DNA of 64,000 nt. Source: a bacterium (GTDB lineage Bacteria > Zixibacteria > MSB-5A5 > GN15 > FEB-12). The position numbers were made by a program, and so were the translations under genes. The DNA is taken from NCBI GenBank assembly GCA_043811375.1, contig JBDRNJ010000084.1:1-64000 (forward strand). The letters run 5' to 3'. The number at the start of each line of letters is the position of its first letter. Position 1 is the first letter of the stretch. The notes below the pieces were generated by a model. That model had not been told where the DNA came from. It saw only the letters and a list, made by a program, of their open reading frames with translations, and searched no databases. This document shows positions 13,573 to 58,339 of this stretch, piece after piece.

Positions 13573-13857
13573 TCAACCGATAAGCTGCGAGAAGTCTTCG
13601 TACGGAATAACCGGCCAGGTTTCCGTTTCCAGAATCCCCTGGGTGTTGATTTCCGAAGCTACCTTGAAAGCGATCTTCTGATCGGAAGCGTCAAAGACGG
13701 CCAGCAGATCGTAGCGACCCAGTGTGGCAAACAGGTTCTGCACCTTGACGCCGTTGGCAGGAAAGACGTCAAGAGAATCGTTGATCTTTTTCTGCAGATC
13801 CTGATGCAGTTTCTTGGCAGCCGGATTGATCGTCATCGCCATCATGAATAATGCCAT
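13573..13857 (-). CDS. GYD domain-containing protein
   Basis: 94 aa with the TLGRYD motif. AAGGAG RBS. Confidence 0.8.
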   Translation of the reverse strand: MALFMMAMTINPAAKKLHQDLQKKINDSLDVFPANGVKVQNLFATLGRYDLLAVFDASDQKIAFKVASEINTQGILETETWPVIPYEDFSQLIG

Positions 13858-17016: not shown

Positions 17017-18273
17017 CTACCTTTTAGTGCGAGATCGCATGAACAGGTCGGTTTGTACTTCGTCACCGGCATTCCGAAGCGGATCCCCTACGTTGAACTG
17101 GCCTTCCGTCCACAGATCGCCGAGCTTGGCTCCATCGTTGACTAAGTCGGTAATACCAGATAGCTTGGAGGTTTGGCGAGCCTTGGTGTACCCATGCTTA
17201 TCGCGATACAGTACCCAGAGTTCCTCTGGACGAAGCTCATTGATAAAATGCGATGAATGTGATGTAACGAGAACCTGCGAGCGGTTGGCAGCATGCCGGC
17301 ACTCCTCTGTCATGCCGGGCAGGAGCCGCGGATGGAGTTGATTCTCGGGTTCTTCGATACCAATAAGTTGAGGGGGATTGGGATCATAGAGGATGATCAG
17401 ATACGCGAGCATCTTGAGTGTTCCGTCAGATGTGTACTTGGCGAGGATAGGACGTTCAAAGGGAGTATCCTTTATCTGAAGCAGGAGGCGCCCATCTGCC
17501 ATGACGCTCGTGTCGACCTTTTCCAGTCGGGGGATTCGCCGGGATAACGCCACCTTTATCCGTTCCAACCTGTCTTTGTGCTGTTCACTCAGGTATTGTA
17601 TCACATTCGGCAAATTGTCACCAGTCTGTGATAACCGCTCCTGTGGTCCGGCTTCCTGCAAGCGCCTGGCACTCTCAGACGAGAGATATGACAGATACCA
17701 GTCCGTGATGAATCTGCGAAGTGCCACAACACGTGGATGTTTAGACAGCTGCCCGAGAGTATTGACGGCCAGCATGTCGGGAGATTCCAGCTTCTCGGGT
17801 GATCGCTTGTCGTTCTCTTCAGGCATTTCCGTGCTGATTACCTCCCCGATACCTTTCTTAAAATCAAGAAAGTGGAAAGGCCGTCCGTGCGAACCGCGCT
17901 TCCACTGAAGCCACTCTTCTGCCACGAAAGGACGGTTGTTCTCTTCGTCAATTGCAAGGTGGTAGGTTATAAGAGGCTTATCCGGAGCTTCACGATACTT
18001 CAACTCGAAAACAACAAATCCCGTCGCGCCACGAGTGCGGAGTTCCACGAACCGTCCACGTTTGTCCCAGGCCTTACGCAAGCCCACCGAGAAACACTCT
18101 GAGAGAAAAGCAAACACATCGAATATCGTGGATTTGCCGCTTCCGTTGGGTCCAAGAAACACTGTTAAAGGCGTCAGTCCCCGGAGTTCCAGATTTTGCA
18201 AAGCCCGGTAGTTTTGAACTTTCAGAAATTCGATACGTGCAACAGAATGTGTATTCCGGGTGGTCGCTTTCAT
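17017..18273 (-). CDS. AAA_21/ABC-type (SMC-like) ATPase
   Basis: Walker A GPNGSGKS, signature SDGT, Walker B IGIEEPEN, His-switch TSHS. AGGAGG RBS. Confidence 0.92.
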
Positions 18274-20913: not shown

Positions 20914-23139
20914 ATGACCAGAAGGAAAGCTTTGGTCATCGGGATTGACAAATATCCCGAAAGCCCTTTAAGAAACTGCGAAAGCGATGCTCAAGAGGTG
21001 GGCGATATACTTGGTTTTCCCGAATATAACTTCGAGGTGAAAACTCTACTGAATGCAAATGCTACTAGGCGAGAGATCCTGGGGCACCTAAATGAGCTTT
21101 TTGAAGATGAACCGGAGTTTGCGGTCTTTTATTTCGCAGGACACGGAATGACAAATGAGTTAACTACTTACCTTGTTTCTGTAGACACCGATGACATAGA
21201 TCCGGGCATTGATTTGGACTACTTGAGGCGGTTAGTAAAAAGTAGGGCCGGGCTTGGTCGCTCCATAATCATACTGCTAGATTGCTGTCATTCTGGATCT
21301 GCCAATATACGTAGTTCAAGAAACACTAATCTGAGATTTGCAAGTAACCAAGACATTGACTCACTTATGCATTCTCTAGGATCAAGTACTGTGGTTATTG
21401 CAGCATGCCAGCCACAGGAGTTGGCCTATGAAGAACCTTCGTTGGAGCATGGTGTGTTTACATTTTATTTGTTGGAGGGTATGTATGGCGATGCAGCTGA
21501 TCATAACGGCAGCATTACCGCTCTGAATCTTTATGAGTATGTTTCTCAAAGACTTGAAAAGGTTACAAATCAGACGCCGGTCTTCAAGGGTGATATAATA
21601 GGTCGGAATGTGTTGGCAACCGGTCTGAAACCTCGCGACGCTACTGTACTTCCTAGCGATGAAGCCAGGAGAATCGAGATCACCGCGGAGAACATGATCA
21701 ATGAATACATTCAGCTAACATCCGTAGATCTATCGTCCTGGGATAGGAATGTATACAAACATGCCAGTTCCGCTCTAGAGCCCAAGTTGCGTTGGTTTAA
21801 CAAGCAGCTTCTAAAGTATCCGAGTTTATCGAAAAGCCAGATATTCAAATCTGCTTTTTCGACCGCACAGGCAAAACGAGCAGATTTGGGCCATCTGAAA
21901 GAAGGACTTAACGCCGGAATCGGTACCATTGGAGCCAAGCTGGGTTCCGGGACTTTCGGCACAGTCTGGCAGGTGAAGACTGACGAAAATTATGATCTTG
22001 CTTATAAAGTTTATCACCCGATGGATCTGGAAAATCAAGAAAAATTGGCGCGTTTTTACCGCGGTTACCGAGCTATGCAGCAGCTGGACCATCCTCATGT
22101 CGTCAAAGTATATAGTTATACCGAATGCCCAATCGGCTTTACGATGCAGCTGATAAAAGGTCCTAATCTGAGAGACTTTGTGTACATGGATGCGAATCCT
22201 GAGGAGATCATACACCAACTCTTGGACGTGGGCGAAACGCTAAAGCATGCGCATTCCAGGGGGGTTATTCATAGAGATGTAAAACCGGAAAACATAATAG
22301 TGAGCTCTGAAAAAGAAGAGGGTGATACGGCCAATCGCCCATACTTAACTGACTTCGACTTGGCATGGTTTAGCACCGCGACTCAGTTTACGAAAGAAGG
22401 AGTAGGTAGCCTCATCTATGCGGCCCCTGAGCAATTGTCCAAACCACAATCAAATGTAGCACATGCTGTAACAACAGATGTTTACGCTTTTGGGCAGCTA
22501 TGTTTTTTCTTCTTGTGCAGGAGGGATCCAGTTCCTGGGCTTGCCGATAACTCACGCGCTCTGAGAGAATCTGTGATAACCTGGAGTACTGAAGAGCCGG
22601 CCCAGAAAATGGTGCAACTCTATGAACAGTGCACCCAGATAAAACCAGGGAACCGAATCCAGGATTTCCGAGACCTTTGCGATCAACTCTTTGAAATCCA
22701 TCAGCTCATTACGGAACATGACCACAGGAGAATAATCGGCTTCGATCGGTTTGCAAAGCAACTCATGTTCTCAATTATAGGTTTGTCTCCTGATTGGAAG
22801 ATTTCGGACACCGTGTTTTTCACTAAAACTAGACACTATAGAGTGTCTATGAACTATTCTGATGCGTCGCGGGGGAAATGCACTATTGGACTGGAGATAT
22901 TTGCTGAGGTACCACATATGGGAGATGGGAGTATTACCTATCAGCAACGCCGCAGGAAGTTGAACAGGAGGATTGATTCGGTTTTGAAATCATATCAGAA
23001 CCGGGTAGTCCGACGGGCGGGGAAGGTGGCACCGTTCTCTATCACTCTATTCATTAACAAAATACAATTGAACACGGACGGTGTTGAATTCTGCCGCCAA
23101 ATCCTCATGAGGGTCATAAACTGTTTAGAAGGCAATTAA
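20914..23139 (+). CDS. Caspase-like (peptidase C14) protease fused to a Ser/Thr protein kinase domain
   Basis: ALVIGIDKY, FAGHG (His), LDCCHSG (Cys) and GVFTFYLLEG. Kinase motifs GSGTFG, LAYK, HRDVKPEN, DFD and YAAPE. Confidence 0.9.
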   Translation: MTRRKALVIGIDKYPESPLRNCESDAQEVGDILGFPEYNFEVKTLLNANATRREILGHLNELFEDEPEFAVFYFAGHGMTNELTTYLVSVDTDDIDPGIDLDYLRRLVKSRAGLGRSIIILLDCCHSGSANIRSSRNTNLRFASNQDIDSLMHSLGSSTVVIAACQPQELAYEEPSLEHGVFTFYLLEGMYGDAADHNGSITALNLYEYVSQRLEKVTNQTPVFKGDIIGRNVLATGLKPRDATVLPSDEARRIEITAENMINEYIQLTSVDLSSWDRNVYKHASSALEPKLRWFNKQLLKYPSLSKSQIFKSAFSTAQAKRADLGHLKEGLNAGIGTIGAKLGSGTFGTVWQVKTDENYDLAYKVYHPMDLENQEKLARFYRGYRAMQQLDHPHVVKVYSYTECPIGFTMQLIKGPNLRDFVYMDANPEEIIHQLLDVGETLKHAHSRGVIHRDVKPENIIVSSEKEEGDTANRPYLTDFDLAWFSTATQFTKEGVGSLIYAAPEQLSKPQSNVAHAVTTDVYAFGQLCFFFLCRRDPVPGLADNSRALRESVITWSTEEPAQKMVQLYEQCTQIKPGNRIQDFRDLCDQLFEIHQLITEHDHRRIIGFDRFAKQLMFSIIGLSPDWKISDTVFFTKTRHYRVSMNYSDASRGKCTIGLEIFAEVPHMGDGSITYQQRRRKLNRRIDSVLKSYQNRVVRRAGKVAPFSITLFINKIQLNTDGVEFCRQILMRVINCLEGN

Positions 23140-25962: not shown

Positions 25963-26121
25963 TCAACTTGAATCTGAATCACCGTCTTCGTCGTCGCGGC
26001 AGGACAATCGCTCGCGGAAGTTACCACTTGTGATGTAAAGCACTGCCGCTGCGACCAGCGCCAGGCCGCAGACAATCAATACCACATGGTACCATCTGAT
26101 TTCACGTACGCTTATTATCAC
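25963..26121 (-). CDS. Small single-pass membrane protein (52 aa, not in the ORF track)
   Basis: GGAGGTG RBS then GTG. Translation MIISVREIRWYHVVLIVCGLALVAAAVLYITSGNFRERLSCRDDEDGDSDSS. A hairpin follows the stop. Confidence 0.7.
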   Translation of the reverse strand: MIISVREIRWYHVVLIVCGLALVAAAVLYITSGNFRERLSCRDDEDGDSDSS

Positions 26122-26351
26122 GCTTACACCTCCAGTGTTTTCTTTCTATTTTAATCGTAGAAACCCACCTGAAAGATGTGCCACCCCGGAGTTTTGAGTT
26201 TCGATGAGTCTGAGAGCGTTTCTGGACATAGATTAAAAATAATCGATCGATGGACAAAAGCAAATCGATTTGAGCGGTACCGCCATAAACACATCAGCAA
26301 TCAGCCGGTCCCTGTAACCAAATGGCCGCTCGATGGAGTACCTTGCCGGGT

Positions 26352-26402
26352 AAATTAAAATGAGACGCCGCTCACACTCCCCTCGAATGTGAGGCGGCGT
26401 CT
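26352..26402 (-). terminator. Probable intrinsic terminator of the putative sRNA
   Basis: AGACGCCGC-C-TCACA...TGTGA-GCGGCGTCT stem followed by CATTTTAATTT on the minus strand. Confidence 0.65.
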
Positions 26403-26460
26403 GCCAAAGAGAAAGAATAAAACCAAGCACCAACAACAGCGCTGGAGCAAAAATGACACT
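26352..26460 (-). ncRNA. Putative sigma54-dependent small RNA (~105 nt)
   Basis: Bounded by a sigma54 promoter and a terminator. U-rich, low-structure 5' half with no RBS-led ORF inside. Confidence 0.5.
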
Positions 26461-26469
26461 ATACGTTGT

Positions 26470-26485
26470 AGCAATGTCGGTGCCG
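26470..26485 (-). promoter_or_regulatory. sigma54 (-24/-12) promoter
   Basis: Minus strand CGGCACCGACATTGCT: GG-N10-GC with GGCAC and TTGCT consensus blocks, adjacent to a bEBP gene. Confidence 0.75.
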
Positions 26486-26583
26486 CTTGTCTCAGTGGAC
26501 CCGTCCAATGGTGTTATCTAATTGTGCTGCAATGGATTGGTTTGTAACTGTCGGGCTCTCGGGGTAGTAAAAGAGTCGGTGAG

Positions 26584-26599
26584 TCGTATGATTATACGA
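26584..26599. promoter_or_regulatory. Candidate upstream activator sequence (bEBP binding site)
   Basis: Perfect dyad TCGTAT-GATT-ATACGA centred about 130 bp upstream of the predicted sigma54 start site. Confidence 0.4.
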
Positions 26600-26609
26600 A
26601 ACCTGTCGC

Positions 26610-26651
26610 AAAAAAAGACGGTAAACGCTTGTTTGTCAAACGTTTACCGTT
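26610..26651 (-). terminator. Intrinsic terminator downstream of the activator gene
   Basis: ACGGTAAACG...CGTTTACCGT stem followed by C and T7 on the minus strand. Confidence 0.7.
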
Positions 26652-26818
26652 ATTGCACAGCAACTCGTACACATCGTATCCGCTCACGACCGGCAAGATC
26701 AGCGATACTATCACCCACAGCCAACAAGTGCTGATCCGGCCGTACGGCCAGCTACCGGTTACCACACGGTGTCAAGACTGCTGATTGCAGTTGTCCGCTT
26801 TTCAATTAGAGAACCGTC

Positions 26819-29074
26819 TCAGTGGACGACACCTCCTTCCAGATTGATCTGGTACCGTCTCACTTTTGTTCGAATAGTCGCCTCGTGGATTCCCAACATG
26901 CGGGCCGCCTCGGACTTGTTGCCGCGGCTGGCCAGCAAAGCTTCGACTATCATCCGACGTTCCAGTTGCTCGACCCGCTCGAACAGTGATTGGGCAACCT
27001 GCTCCCGTTCGGGCGAAAAGATTGATCGTGACAACTCGACCAGGTCGCCTTCTTTCACCAGTTCAACCATGACTTCCAGTTGTCTGACCTTGTTGAGCAG
27101 TTCGCGGGTGTTGCCGGGCCAGTTATGCTCGATAAACTGGTGCACCAGTTCGGTCGGAGGCGGGCCGTTGCTTTTAAGCAGCCGGCTGTTTGCCATGAAG
27201 TGTGCCAACAGAAGCGGGATATCCTCTTTCCGCTCGCGCAGGGCCGGGAGATGGAAAGCGAATCCGCTCAGTCGGTAGAACAGGTCGCGTCTGAACTCGC
27301 CCCGATCGACCTTCTCTTCGAGATTATTGTTGGTGGCCACAACCAGCTTGATATCAAGCTGTACTTCCTCGGTGGAGCCCAGCGGCATAACTCGGCGCGT
27401 TTCCAACACTCCCAGCAGTTTGGCCTGAAGTACCAACGGCATATCGCCAATCTCATCCAGGTAGAGAACACCTTGATTGGCGGTCACGAACAGGCCCGGT
27501 TTGTCGCTATCGGCTCCAGTGAAGGCGCCCCGACGGTAACCGAACAGTTCCGATTCCAGAAGCGTTTCCGGAAAGGAAGCACAATTGACCGCAACCAGGG
27601 GAGCCTGTGGACGCACCAGTGAATGATAGTGGCGAGCCAGATGATCCTTGCCGACGCCGGTTTCTCCGGTCAAGAGCAACGGCAGATCGGATCGGCCGAT
27701 GGCCGGCAATTGCGACAGGAAACGCTTGATGACCGGGCAGGCCGTCAGGTAATCGTTCGAGTTGACCCGGCCAACAGAACCTGTGGTCGGATCAGCAACT
27801 GAAGAGGTAAGCGGATAATCGATCCCGTTGATTATCTTCTCCACCTCTTGAATTCCGGCCGTCAGAGCATGACGACGGTAGAACTCTTCGGCTCGGAAGA
27901 GGTAGACCAGCCGCTGTCTGTCAGGGAAGAGATTCGATTGACCGGCCTGGACCAGCGTCCGGGCCAGTTCGAAGCGTACTCCGCTCTCACGAATGAGTTC
28001 CAGGGCTTGAGCAAAGTACTCCCGTCCTTCGGACTCGTTACCGTCGGCTTCGGCTATGACAGCCTTGATTCTCAGTAGAGCGCCGATCTCAACGCTGTTG
28101 CCGGCCCGGTCCATGATAGCCATGGCTTTGGAAGCGCACTGTCGGGCAGCCGAAAATTCCTGCTTCAGCAGGTGCAGTTCGGCCAGGTGTCTCAGCACGC
28201 GTGCCGTCAGAGTCGTGTTGGGAGTTATTTCCTCCGCCAGTCGGCGGGCGCTGTCCAGCGCCTGCTGCGCCTCCGGCAAGCGACCCCAGCGATAGTAGAG
28301 CTCACCCCGGTAGGTCAGGCTGATTACTTCGTTGCGTCGCCCGTTAAGGGCAGCTATCTGCCGGTCGGCTTTGTCAAGCATTTGCTCGGCCTCACTGAAC
28401 CGGTCCTGCCGGATATAGACATATCCCAGAGCAATGCCGGCCCGGATCGTTTCCGAGGTGTCGCCCAGTTCCCCGGAGAGATCAACATTCATCTGAAGAT
28501 GTTCTTCAGCTTTGCTGAAATCTCCCAGGAAAGTATGGATGCGACCGATATTACCCATCATGTACGCCAGTTTCCGTTCATCGCCCAGTTTCCGAATAAT
28601 TTCCACGGCGTCGGTCAGCACCGAAAGCGCGTTGCGGTAGTCGGACTGTTTGTAAAACAGACCGGCCAGCAAATTCAGCGCCCGGCTCTGACCTTCAGGA
28701 GAGTCCTGACGTCGGAAGATTGATTCGGCATCCCGGAAAGCCTTTTCCGCCTCTTTGAACTCGCACATGTCGCGCAGGATGCCGCCGAGCGTAAGGAACG
28801 TCTCGGCCAGATCCCGGCTGTCGCCTTCCTGCGCCACCCGATTCTGCGCCAGTCGCGCTGTTTTCAAAGCGGTCGGGTAGTTCGAGAGAGAAGCGTAGGC
28901 TTCGGCTGCATGACGAAGAACTGATCCGGCCGGCGCACCAGCCGCGGCCTCAAGCTCTACCCGGTTGTCTTCGTAGAACTTGACGGCGGCGGTGAAGTCC
29001 CGCTTCTGGATCAGACACGCCATGTAGTGATTCATGGCGTGGCGGAAGTCACAACCTTTATGTGCCTTCTTCAT
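26819..29074 (-). CDS. sigma54-dependent enhancer-binding protein with N-terminal TPR array and Fis-type HTH
   Basis: About 400 aa of TPR-like helical repeats (e.g. ALNLLAGLFYKQSDYRNAL, MGNIGRIHTFLGDFSKAEEH). AAA+ motifs GETGVGK, ESELFG..GAFTGA, LDEIG, FRRDLFYRL and WPGNTREL. HTH GNKSEAARMLGI. Confidence 0.95.
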   Translation of the reverse strand: MKKAHKGCDFRHAMNHYMACLIQKRDFTAAVKFYEDNRVELEAAAGAPAGSVLRHAAEAYASLSNYPTALKTARLAQNRVAQEGDSRDLAETFLTLGGILRDMCEFKEAEKAFRDAESIFRRQDSPEGQSRALNLLAGLFYKQSDYRNALSVLTDAVEIIRKLGDERKLAYMMGNIGRIHTFLGDFSKAEEHLQMNVDLSGELGDTSETIRAGIALGYVYIRQDRFSEAEQMLDKADRQIAALNGRRNEVISLTYRGELYYRWGRLPEAQQALDSARRLAEEITPNTTLTARVLRHLAELHLLKQEFSAARQCASKAMAIMDRAGNSVEIGALLRIKAVIAEADGNESEGREYFAQALELIRESGVRFELARTLVQAGQSNLFPDRQRLVYLFRAEEFYRRHALTAGIQEVEKIINGIDYPLTSSVADPTTGSVGRVNSNDYLTACPVIKRFLSQLPAIGRSDLPLLLTGETGVGKDHLARHYHSLVRPQAPLVAVNCASFPETLLESELFGYRRGAFTGADSDKPGLFVTANQGVLYLDEIGDMPLVLQAKLLGVLETRRVMPLGSTEEVQLDIKLVVATNNNLEEKVDRGEFRRDLFYRLSGFAFHLPALRERKEDIPLLLAHFMANSRLLKSNGPPPTELVHQFIEHNWPGNTRELLNKVRQLEVMVELVKEGDLVELSRSIFSPEREQVAQSLFERVEQLERRMIVEALLASRGNKSEAARMLGIHEATIRTKVRRYQINLEGGVVH

Positions 29075-29436
29075 CTCGTGTTACCCTTGTTGTTATCAGT
29101 CGGATTCGAATCTTCCTCCTGATTTCCTCCGTTGGGAATGATGTAAAAGTGGGTTTTCCGGTTCATACTCCTGTTCCAGGAGTCACCGTAGAACCAATCA
29201 CCAAAAACGATGTTGATCAGCAAATCCAGGTGTGTGAAACTCGATCCCACCGGGACAAAACCTCCGCTGCCGGGGGCCAGATCGATACTGCCATCCCAGC
29301 GCTGTTCGCCTCCCCAGGTGTGATCATCACCCCGGGACGGGTCCTTGTAGTTGTAAGGCTGTTCTCTGGAGAACGAGACGTCCGACACGACCAGGACCAG
29401 CAACAGCGCAATTGCAATTGTAAACACGCGCTTCAT
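29071..29436 (-). CDS. Small secreted protein / candidate signalling pre-propeptide
   Basis: Sec signal MKRVFTIAIALLLVLVVSDVSFS followed by a G/D/N-rich region with GDDHTWGGEQ. AAGGAG RBS. ATGA overlap with the activator start. Confidence 0.8.
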   Translation of the reverse strand: MKRVFTIAIALLLVLVVSDVSFSREQPYNYKDPSRGDDHTWGGEQRWDGSIDLAPGSGGFVPVGSSFTHLDLLINIVFGDWFYGDSWNRSMNRKTHFYIIPNGGNQEEDSNPTDNNKGNTR

Positions 29437-57394: not shown

Positions 57395-58339
57395 ATGGAC
57401 TATGCCCATTGCCAACACCTGCTACACTATGCCATTATCGAGCAGCTCGGCGAAGGACCCAGCGGGGTGGTGTTTCGAGCCTGGGATACGGTGCAGCAGC
57501 GTTTTGTGGCCGTAAAACAACTGCGGCCGGAGCTGACGGCCGAGGTGGCTTTCCGTGCTCACTGCTTGACGGCCATCCGGACCTTGAAGCATTGCACTCA
57601 CCCCGGCATAAGCCCGGTTTACGATATTCAAACCGATAACGACCCCTATCTAATTGTCACAGAATACATTAAGGGCGACTCATTGCGGGGAATAATCGAA
57701 CGCGGCCCACTGGATAATCACCGCTTTCTCTATTATGCCGGACAGATAGCCGAGGCGCTCACTTTTGCCCATCGACAACTGATCCCCCATGGCAACATCA
57801 AGCCGTCCAATATCATCGTGGCTGCCGACGGACGCCTGTGGTTGACCGATTTTGGGCTGAACTGCGGCACAGTCGGCGGCAATGCCGATCTCAGTCGACT
57901 TACCCCACAGACAGCCTGCTATCTGGCGCCGGAGCAGATAACCGGTGAACAGACTACACCACTGACGGATTTCTTTTCGTTGGGTACGCTCGCATATGAA
58001 ATGTTGACCGGGCTCAACCCATTTGCCGCCGACACTGTCGAAACCGTCCACGAGAATATCCTCCGGGCAGAGCCTGATATCCAGGCACTGAGAGCCCGGA
58101 AGGTTCCGGGCGACACGATACTGATGATAGAAAAACTGCTGGCCAAAGACCCGTCCGAACGCTTCGGCAGCGGCGGTGAATTGACCGTGACCCTGCAGGT
58201 TATGCGCTCCTACGAGCGGCAATCACCCGATCAACCGTTCCTGAAAGTCAAACCAAATACCCCCCGCCAATACCTGATGTTATCAATGCTGGCGGCCTTG
58301 TTGATTATTCTGTGGTTAGTGATAACCACTTACCGGTAG
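57395..58339 (+). CDS. Ser/Thr kinase-like protein with C-terminal TM helix (probable pseudokinase)
   Basis: LGEGPSGVV, VAVK, HGNIKPSN, DFG and YLAPE motifs; C-terminal hydrophobic helix. Confidence 0.88.
   Translation: MDYAHCQHLLHYAIIEQLGEGPSGVVFRAWDTVQQRFVAVKQLRPELTAEVAFRAHCLTAIRTLKHCTHPGISPVYDIQTDNDPYLIVTEYIKGDSLRGIIERGPLDNHRFLYYAGQIAEALTFAHRQLIPHGNIKPSNIIVAADGRLWLTDFGLNCGTVGGNADLSRLTPQTACYLAPEQITGEQTTPLTDFFSLGTLAYEMLTGLNPFAADTVETVHENILRAEPDIQALRARKVPGDTILMIEKLLAKDPSERFGSGGELTVTLQVMRSYERQSPDQPFLKVKPNTPRQYLMLSMLAALLIILWLVITTYR

Follow-up and report, generated by a model that had tools for sequence, protein, structure and literature searches.

A conserved small RNA, predicted to be transcribed from its own sigma-54 promoter directly behind the gene of its putative activator, probably blocks synthesis of an anti-sigma factor and thereby frees the partner ECF sigma factor. 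It lies on the minus strand at positions 26352-26460 of the window, the 64,000-nt stretch of Zixibacteria contig JBDRNJ010000084.1 analysed here. That the element is an sRNA we hold with high confidence, and only slightly less firmly that the junction between the sigma and anti-sigma genes is its target. The first-pass annotation had proposed a sigma-54-dependent sRNA aimed at translation initiation regions, a reading now supported by the conservation of promoter and enhancer sites, a covarying terminator, the variety of downstream genes and compensatory changes in the target.

The sigma-54 -24/-12 promoter occupies positions 26470-26485, where CGGCACCGACATTGCT reads from 26485 to 26470 on the minus strand. 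This is the sole exact match to YGGCAC-N5-TTGC in the window; with 0.35 such matches expected by chance and one present in 31 of 100 shuffles, the motif by itself is not significant, and it is conservation that gives it significance. Its GG, C, A, T13, G14 and C15 positions are invariant among 28 aligned homologues, and a conserved GTC(A/G)T block starts 14 nt past the -12 C in 48 of 59 homologues. Given the GC at -13/-12, the predicted +1 falls at 26459, which agrees with the start at about 26459-26460 named in the first-pass annotation, whose quoted transcript matches the sequence letter for letter. The genome encodes rpoN.

The predicted RNA is about 105-109 nt long. The 109-nt form (26460-26352) folds with z = -4.14, none of 200 shuffles folding equally well. 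Its middle hairpin (26423-26445, minus strand), present in both fold and alignment, has 84% of its alignment cells paired and three of six pairs changed on both sides among homologues. A conserved 3' pyrimidine tract follows (26404-26422, minus strand) and leads into the terminator hairpin with its U tail (26352-26402, minus strand), the hairpin proper spanning 26402-26363 with GAGGGG at the loop (26384-26379). The 12 pairs of the terminator are 97% paired, nine of them changed on both sides, against only 31-54% for slid controls; GAGGGG is kept at the loop in 70 of 77 homologues although the stem covaries freely, and the loops of family f3 are mostly GAGGGGUG. The long 3' hairpin seen in the earlier reading is thus upheld, and two of its companion features need correction. 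The U-rich tail is a U run directly 3' of the stem in most homologues and is weak in the window's own genome, where CA stands ahead of UUUUAAUUU and a terminator scan made no call. The 5' half of the RNA is not unstructured throughout, as it contains the middle hairpin. The 5' end is accessible, with a mean unpaired probability of 0.73 over nucleotides 3-16 in 57 f1 RNAs. A pseudoknot between tract and loop is rejected by reasoning, on geometry. Public RNA data are uninformative either way: among the seven runs listed, none held half of the words, and no contig lay over 26285-26635. Comparison across genomes confirms promoter, predicted transcript and hairpin as a real and conserved element.

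A covariance model built from 20 sequences matched the element at 26349-26458 (E 2.8e-23), the sole strong match in its genome. The homologue set comprises 77 sequences, one per genome, all from a single Zixibacteria order and falling into four families (57 f1, 10 f3, 6 f4 and 4 f2); model matches in G047 (two), G121 and G112 stand outside all homologue counts. One strong copy per genome was found in 51 of 54 f1, 10 of 10 f3 and 3 of 3 f2 genomes, together with weak matches in 6 of 15 f4 genomes, and all 77 homologues have both the -24/-12 promoter and the terminator hairpin. Outside the order, model matches were no better than E 4e-5 and matches to the TPR protein reached only paralogue level, so that a diverged homologue there is possible. 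Counting the window's own genome, the element lies behind the activator in 33 of 39 loci; two of the others are cut by contig ends and four are f4 loci without it. The layout at the 33 loci is promoter, GTCAT block, variable hairpin, pyrimidine tract and terminator with GAGGGG loop. Those weak f4 matches that were inspected proved to be sRNAs relocated together with their enhancer sites and promoter to places not adjacent to the activator; G030 has such a relocated sRNA, and no activator orthologue was found there. Within the window's own genome, the only further model matches were two weak ones, antisense to a 5' UTR (C74) and in a leader hairpin (C6), and paralogous copies, which the first-pass annotation had thought worth seeking behind other activator genes, did not turn up: nothing sRNA-like lies behind the 21 other sigma-54 activator matches. 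Rfam gave no gathering-score match in the window, only two chance matches nearby (E 3.8 and 6.4) that lie off the element, and the covariance models of Pxr, Qrr, CrcZ and GlmY/Z do not match it.

The gene preceding the sRNA encodes a 751-aa enhancer-binding protein with TPR, sigma-54 AAA and HTH_8 domains (26819-29074, minus strand; assigned by Pfam, with the GAFTGA motif read directly), for which 38 of 40 relatives have an orthologue at E<1e-150. Two palindromes of the TCGTA-N6-TACGA type lie between this gene and the promoter, the distal one at 26674-26689 (204 bp before the -24 element) and the proximal one at 26584-26599 (114 bp before it). The distal site recurs in 70 and the proximal site in 75 of the 77 homologous promoters, as against a mean of 12 of 75 for any such site in shuffled regions. 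Proximal offsets group at 104-107, 112-118 and 125-126, a spacing of about one helical turn, and the sRNA promoter is the only sigma-54 motif in its genome with two such palindromes, which are putative enhancer sites of the activator. An IHF-like site occurs in 20 of 75 homologues (shuffled mean 9, maximum 17), a weak signal. Between the two enhancer sites sits the intrinsic terminator of the activator operon, called by a terminator scan (26618-26650, minus strand), and a hairpin below -12 kcal/mol falls within the corresponding interval in 67 of 75 homologues; this terminator would shield the sRNA from read-through. Just 5' of it, an anti-SD-like CTCCTTGG occurs in 35 of 55 f1 and 3 of 4 f2 genomes (41 of 75 overall; shuffled mean 5), lying between the enhancer sites in relatives such as L005, L009 and L016 and absent from the window at 26650-26670. 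CTCCTTGG looks like the last part of the tract in the sRNA itself. It may represent a sibling seed in the 3' UTR, the origin of the sRNA or a feedback site.

The start of the activator gene is overlapped by the stop codon of an ORF (29071-29436, minus strand) whose 121-aa product has an H-x-W-G-G motif, begins with a signal-peptide-like stretch and matched no Pfam or NCBIfam family. Of the 55 loci that extend far enough upstream, some of them duplicates, 54 have a similar small ORF directly 5' of the activator, and H39, W41 and G42 are invariant across 41 of the small proteins. For the input side we used the RRNPP-like family description of peptide sensing as a comparison, and the layout agrees with it in that a TPR regulator adjoins a predicted exported pro-peptide gene. 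The exported H-x-W-G-G protein is a likely candidate for the activator's signal.

What follows the sRNA differs from genome to genome: the downstream gene may be BMC-like, short-chain-dehydrogenase-like or transporter-like, or lie on the opposite strand. In many f1 genomes (L005, L008, L009, L012, L014, L017, L018 and L020-L023) it was recognised by eye as starting like a BMC shell protein. In the window it is a 52-aa hydrophobic ORF outside the element (25963-26121, minus strand), 230 nt downstream, and a small ORF with a [KR]WY[HY] motif and without family assignment follows the sRNA in 5 of the 33 first-set loci, that is, in four genomes besides the window's own. Since downstream genes vary and neither strand keeps an ORF, the element is best read as a standalone sRNA and not as a leader or a small gene. 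Near the 52-aa ORF, a sequence of about 30 bp at approximately 26159-26189 has further copies on at least five other contigs, in two cases close to a contig end, and is probably a small repeat element. Elsewhere in the window, a caspase-like (Peptidase_C14) domain is fused to a Ser/Thr kinase at 20914-23139, near an AAA_21 ATPase at 17017-18273, and the region might be a defence or conflict locus.

The first 16 nt of the predicted transcript (26444-26459, minus strand) form a seed that is the reverse complement of an SD sequence, a 5-nt spacer, ATG and ACA as codon 2. The corresponding site lies outside the window, on contig C68 of the same genome (G000:C68 around 13594-13608). It is the start of a gene that encodes a membrane protein of 191 aa with a zf-HC2 domain, and the ATG of this gene overlaps the stop codon of an ECF sigma gene. 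The middle hairpin contributes a second pairing segment with its 5' arm (26432-26443, minus strand), which pairs inside the sigma ORF with its last codons, about 25-37 nt before the anti-sigma AUG, with a mean of -10.8 kcal/mol in 57 f1 genomes versus -6.6 kcal/mol for shuffled targets. A 15-nt form of the seed has only two perfect complements in the genome besides itself, both at gene starts, those of the anti-sigma factor and of an M4 peptidase. Among 3061 starts taken from crude gene calls, the anti-sigma start came second by seed, in a ranking for which the M4 start was mis-called, and first by seed plus second segment; with self-structure penalties it came third of 3061. Of the eight ECF-downstream junctions in the genome only the one on C68 pairs (-30.7 vs -8.7 to -17.9). 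The operon has the make-up of an ECF/zinc-binding anti-sigma pair, the first protein having sigma regions 2 and 4 and the next a zf-HC2 domain and a membrane helix; a hydrophobic 19-residue window is present in 79 of 82 anti-sigma proteins, and the NCBIfam anti-sigma models score below their own cut-offs on the target protein. From its domain and the gene order, the target protein would bind and inhibit the partner sigma. Searches recovered the ECF from 35 of 40 relatives, from all 50 further f1, f3 and f4 genomes and from none of five f2 genomes.

Comparison of the two partners across genomes shows that compensatory changes preserve the complementarity between the predicted seed and the sigma/anti-sigma junction. 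Cognate duplexes reached -20.4 in the 25 genomes compared first, as against -16.4 for non-cognate ones, in a permutation-type comparison that ignores kinship; in 34 held-out f1 genomes the values were -24.05 and -19.69, a difference matched by none of 100000 permutations, kinship again being ignored. Pairing at -17 kcal/mol or better was found in 49 of 57 f1 genomes, and in 40 of the 57 the anti-sigma start fell in the top 1% of 600 background starts; pairing was weak in the other 8 f1 genomes and in 6 of 10 f3 genomes. Position tables were drawn from 46 in-register f1 rows, 11 of the 57 having been left out for bulges or loss. At position -5 these rows hold T:A in 29 cases, C:G in 8, T:G in 3 and C:A in none, and at position -2 A:T in 37, G:C in 7, G:T in 1 and A:C in none. 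On a tree of 86 sigma and anti-sigma proteins, about seven independent paired changes fall at four positions, with none in the opposite direction. An independent-pairs test found no single position significant; tree-aware simulation gave p values of about 0.008 (-5), 0.0006 (-2), 0.02 (-1) and 0.28 (-3), combined 3e-5, for positions picked after looking. Conservation of the target is partly due to constraints on SD, stop and start. The duplex covers the sigma stop, and in 31 of 61 f1 genomes the -5 base is the first T of its TAA.

Natural variants provide further controls. In f4 the anti-sigma start differs in sequence, and the relocated sRNA pairs with it via another segment, the 3' tract in four genomes (14-16 bp) and a neighbouring stretch in two; for none of the six do more than 2 of 70 background starts pair better. 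The pyrimidine tract named as the pairing segment in the first-pass annotation thus has this part in f4 only, f1 pairing using the 5'-most 16 nt. Three f1 genomes from two genera (G017, G127 and G155) have neither an sRNA match nor an activator orthologue and have kept the ECF operon; between f1 seeds and the anti-sigma starts of these genomes, pairing is poor (-12 to -13).

Among other matches of the seed and of the remaining RNA, the two that were compared with orthologues did not prove conserved. The start of the M4 peptidase with dockerin (G000:C19:84668-84683) matches the seed in 16 of 16 nt, and the match is lost in the one orthologue found, so that it was rejected as a conserved target. 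The start of a C25 peptidase (C11 near 57487-57496) matches in 15 of 16 nt plus a wobble; both matches are starts of large secreted peptidases. With the leader of an 805-aa secreted protein (G000:C74:62476-62575, L272; rank 4 of 3061), the sRNA shows complementarity over about 55 of its nucleotides. This leader was likewise rejected as a conserved target, the complementarity being absent in two close orthologues, while a third, distant homologue pairs through the tract; the leader is a possible species-specific target.

These elements suggest a relay. Two phased enhancer sites, the promoter and the terminator delimit a unit of about 105 nt beside the TPR activator gene; the activator would bind the enhancer sites and fire the promoter. 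The transcript, whose seed is kept complementary to the junction by paired changes, would then form a duplex of 15-18 bp, joined by the second segment, that either blocks initiation at the anti-sigma AUG or removes the downstream mRNA, sigma translation being spared much as upstream cistrons are with Spot 42 at galK. Since a duplex over SD and AUG is the classical means of blocking initiation, as with OmrA/B on flgM, and Spot 42 spares upstream cistrons, the relay would most likely lower anti-sigma and leave sigma free. The pairing would need no Hfq, and the long duplex would suit chaperone-free pairing: Hfq (PF17209) was found in none of 61 genomes of the order, and a search of the window's own genome, which encodes CsrA, found neither ProQ nor Jag_N. 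An Hfq-dependent sRNA of the OmrA/B, Spot 42 or Qrr type is rejected because of this absence. C. jejuni too is not known to have Hfq; Spot 42 is Hfq-dependent and not known to be sigma-54 driven; and the hosts of Qrr1, GlmY/GlmZ and CrcZ, the last a sigma-54 and enhancer-binding-protein dependent sRNA encoded behind cbrB, have Hfq.

Freed sigma would amplify itself at its own AAC/CGTC promoter and turn on a few, mostly exported proteins. In 72 of 86 genomes, against a shuffled mean of 0.6, the sigma gene is preceded by an AAC-N16-CGTC-type motif, and AAC/CGT promoters are described as a hallmark of autoregulated ECFs (PMC8103513). With such a promoter the sigma factor would be autoregulated, and a small shift would therefore be amplified. 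A conserved TTGACA ... CCATA ... GTCAA arrangement was noticed ahead of the ECF promoter, within the intergenic region that the operon has in common with a divergent MFS gene (L040 around 2700-2830 and orthologues). In the window's own genome, 10 upstream regions score at least 16 with the ECF motif and none of the reversed controls does; most of these candidate targets have signal-peptide-like N-termini, and promoters of an OmpA-family and a DsbD-like protein score just under 16, which points to an envelope response as the predicted output. The full relay, in which an exported H-x-W-G-G peptide would be sensed by the TPR activator, the sRNA would be that activator's sole output and would, without a chaperone, separate a translationally coupled ECF sigma from its anti-sigma, the ECF would be switched on by RNA and not by anti-sigma proteolysis, and the target would have been kept order-wide while the sRNA moved and changed its pairing segment, is put forward only tentatively.

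Several other readings were weighed. The duplex could have the opposite sign and, by lying over the stop and last codons of sigma, trigger cleavage or stalling that shuts the whole ECF operon. In most f1 genomes the seed does extend over the sigma stop, pairing of the second segment falls within the sigma ORF, and binding of Spot 42 at a junction causes cleavage and Rho termination (PMC8577784). With the stop inside the duplex, a terminating ribosome might displace the sRNA, or the sigma message might be lost to cleavage. The covarying core is nevertheless centred on the anti-sigma SD and AUG, pairing persists where the sigma stop sits 12-28 nt upstream (f3, f4 and some f1), the start of the sigma gene itself does not pair (rank 3037 of 3061) and upstream gal cistrons persist as galET mRNA (PMC8577784); we consider this reading unlikely. 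Somewhat less likely still is an older main role exerted through the 3' tract or the GAGGGG loop, on other mRNAs or a CsrA-like protein, with anti-sigma pairing as a secondary, lineage-specific addition. All four families, f2 included, retain tract and loop; since f2 has the sRNA core and searches of its genomes did not find the ECF, the sRNA must do more than act on the anti-sigma. A protein partner could be the CsrA of the window's own genome, and in two f2 genomes (L325 and L333) the ECF junction that best matches the tract is the start of another small zinc-finger anti-sigma gene (83-88 aa), which follows a different ECF, a weak sign because U/C tracts pair with any purine run. Against such a role, pattern searches for the f1 3' tract and the f2 tract in 5 + 5 genomes gave no common gene and no conserved second target was found for the tract, f3 loops mostly read GAGGGGUG, and the f4 tract itself pairs with the same anti-sigma start. 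The RNA holds a single GGA, and a protein sponge of the CsrB/RsmZ type, which needs many GGA in loops, was rejected on that account.

Far less probable is a sigma-54-driven 5' leader or attenuator of the 52-aa gene, to which the weak U tail, the same-strand position of the next ORF and the similar small ORF in four other relatives might point. Read-through into that gene, which the first-pass annotation had named as a rival to its own proposal, is not favoured: downstream genes differ among relatives, the element relocates in f4, the terminator covaries and no conserved antiterminator was seen; a riboswitch or attenuator leader more generally was rejected as there is no fixed downstream gene function. 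Equally hard to credit, or slightly more so, is a chance coincidence, in which a promoter-like motif and a terminator would merely be joined by generic complementarity to SD sequences. Chance would account for the promoter motif taken alone, an anti-SD/anti-AUG seed will luckily match some starts, and two other strong matches in the window's own genome are lost in orthologues; chance is contradicted, however, by order-wide conservation, phased enhancer sites, a covarying stem, and compensatory, cognate-specific pairing with one orthologous gene. The least credible reading takes the conserved SD and ATG for an opposite-strand small gene, the plus strand having an SD, an ATG and a 22-codon ORF, or takes a same-strand 91-aa ORF, which has a hydrophobic stretch and spans the element, for a real gene. 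This reading is contradicted: antisense ORFs in 55 homologues range from 2 to 64 codons and have no common sequence, promoter-to-loop distances vary by non-multiples of three, and there was no Pfam match.

The preferred reading, an sRNA acting on the anti-sigma start, has precedents for its parts. Its layout is that of Pxr behind nla19 in Myxococcus xanthus (PMC5568312), which like the present sRNA lies directly 3' of a sigma-54 activator gene, has its own sigma-54 promoter and measures about 108 nt; Nla19, however, is a response regulator, whereas the activator here has a TPR sensor, and Pxr is a processed triple stem-loop, whereas the present element has a predicted anti-sigma target. Its logic recalls CJnc230/FlmE of Campylobacter jejuni (PMC11187230), an RpoN-dependent RNA whose anti-SD seed represses the anti-sigma FlgM and frees the next sigma. 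FlmE is processed from flgE mRNA in a flagellar cascade and acts on an anti-sigma-28 (PMC11187230), unlike the RNA described here, a predicted primary transcript with a dedicated promoter, directed at a membrane-bound zinc-finger anti-sigma in an ECF operon. OmrA and OmrB of E. coli likewise use a 5' seed to stop ribosome loading on the flgM mRNA and so liberate sigma (PMC7549644), differing in that they are Hfq-dependent, have many targets, pair in the early coding sequence and act on an anti-sigma-28. SrbA of Pseudomonas aeruginosa is reported to lower translation of MucA, an ECF anti-sigma co-transcribed with its sigma (algU), on the evidence of a predicted 8-nt match and reporters; neither a link to a sigma-54 activator nor cross-species covariation was seen in the excerpted text (PMC12203948). 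Spot 42 of E. coli binds where the galT and galK cistrons meet; the downstream part is lost and the mRNA upstream of it survives (PMC8577784), and so it serves as a model for uncoupling sigma from anti-sigma, although it acts on a metabolic operon. Qrr1 of Vibrio (PMC10162802) and GlmY/GlmZ (PMC3045617) are, as here, sRNAs that depend on sigma-54 and an enhancer-binding protein; in addition to the lack of covariance-model matches, these and CrcZ differ from the present RNA in their targets. With Pxr, Qrr and CrcZ the element shares promoter spacing, enhancer sites 100-200 bp off, an intact adjacent activator and an rpoN gene in the genome; with trans-acting sRNAs it shares its own terminator, independence from the downstream gene, and an accessible conserved seed with compensatory changes.

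In the literature searched on small RNAs and sigma-54 in Zixibacteria and on sRNA-controlled ECF anti-sigma factors, neither the RNA nor the relay is described, though supplementary genome-wide ncRNA lists could hold the motif. The element is judged to be a real and new sRNA family, combining the layout of nla19-pxr with the logic of FlmE and OmrA/B on flgM and of SrbA on mucA. Release of an ECF sigma is usually thought to follow the destruction or inactivation of the anti-sigma protein. In the present case, the route to an ECF sigma appears to run from a dedicated sigma-54 activator through an RNA aimed at the sigma/anti-sigma junction. A duplex of 15-18 bp with natural compensatory variants makes the claim testable without culturing Zixibacteria, and the pair would represent a chaperone-free sRNA and target from a phylum without a described sRNA in the literature searched, as well as a natural example of a seed that has switched while its target stayed fixed.
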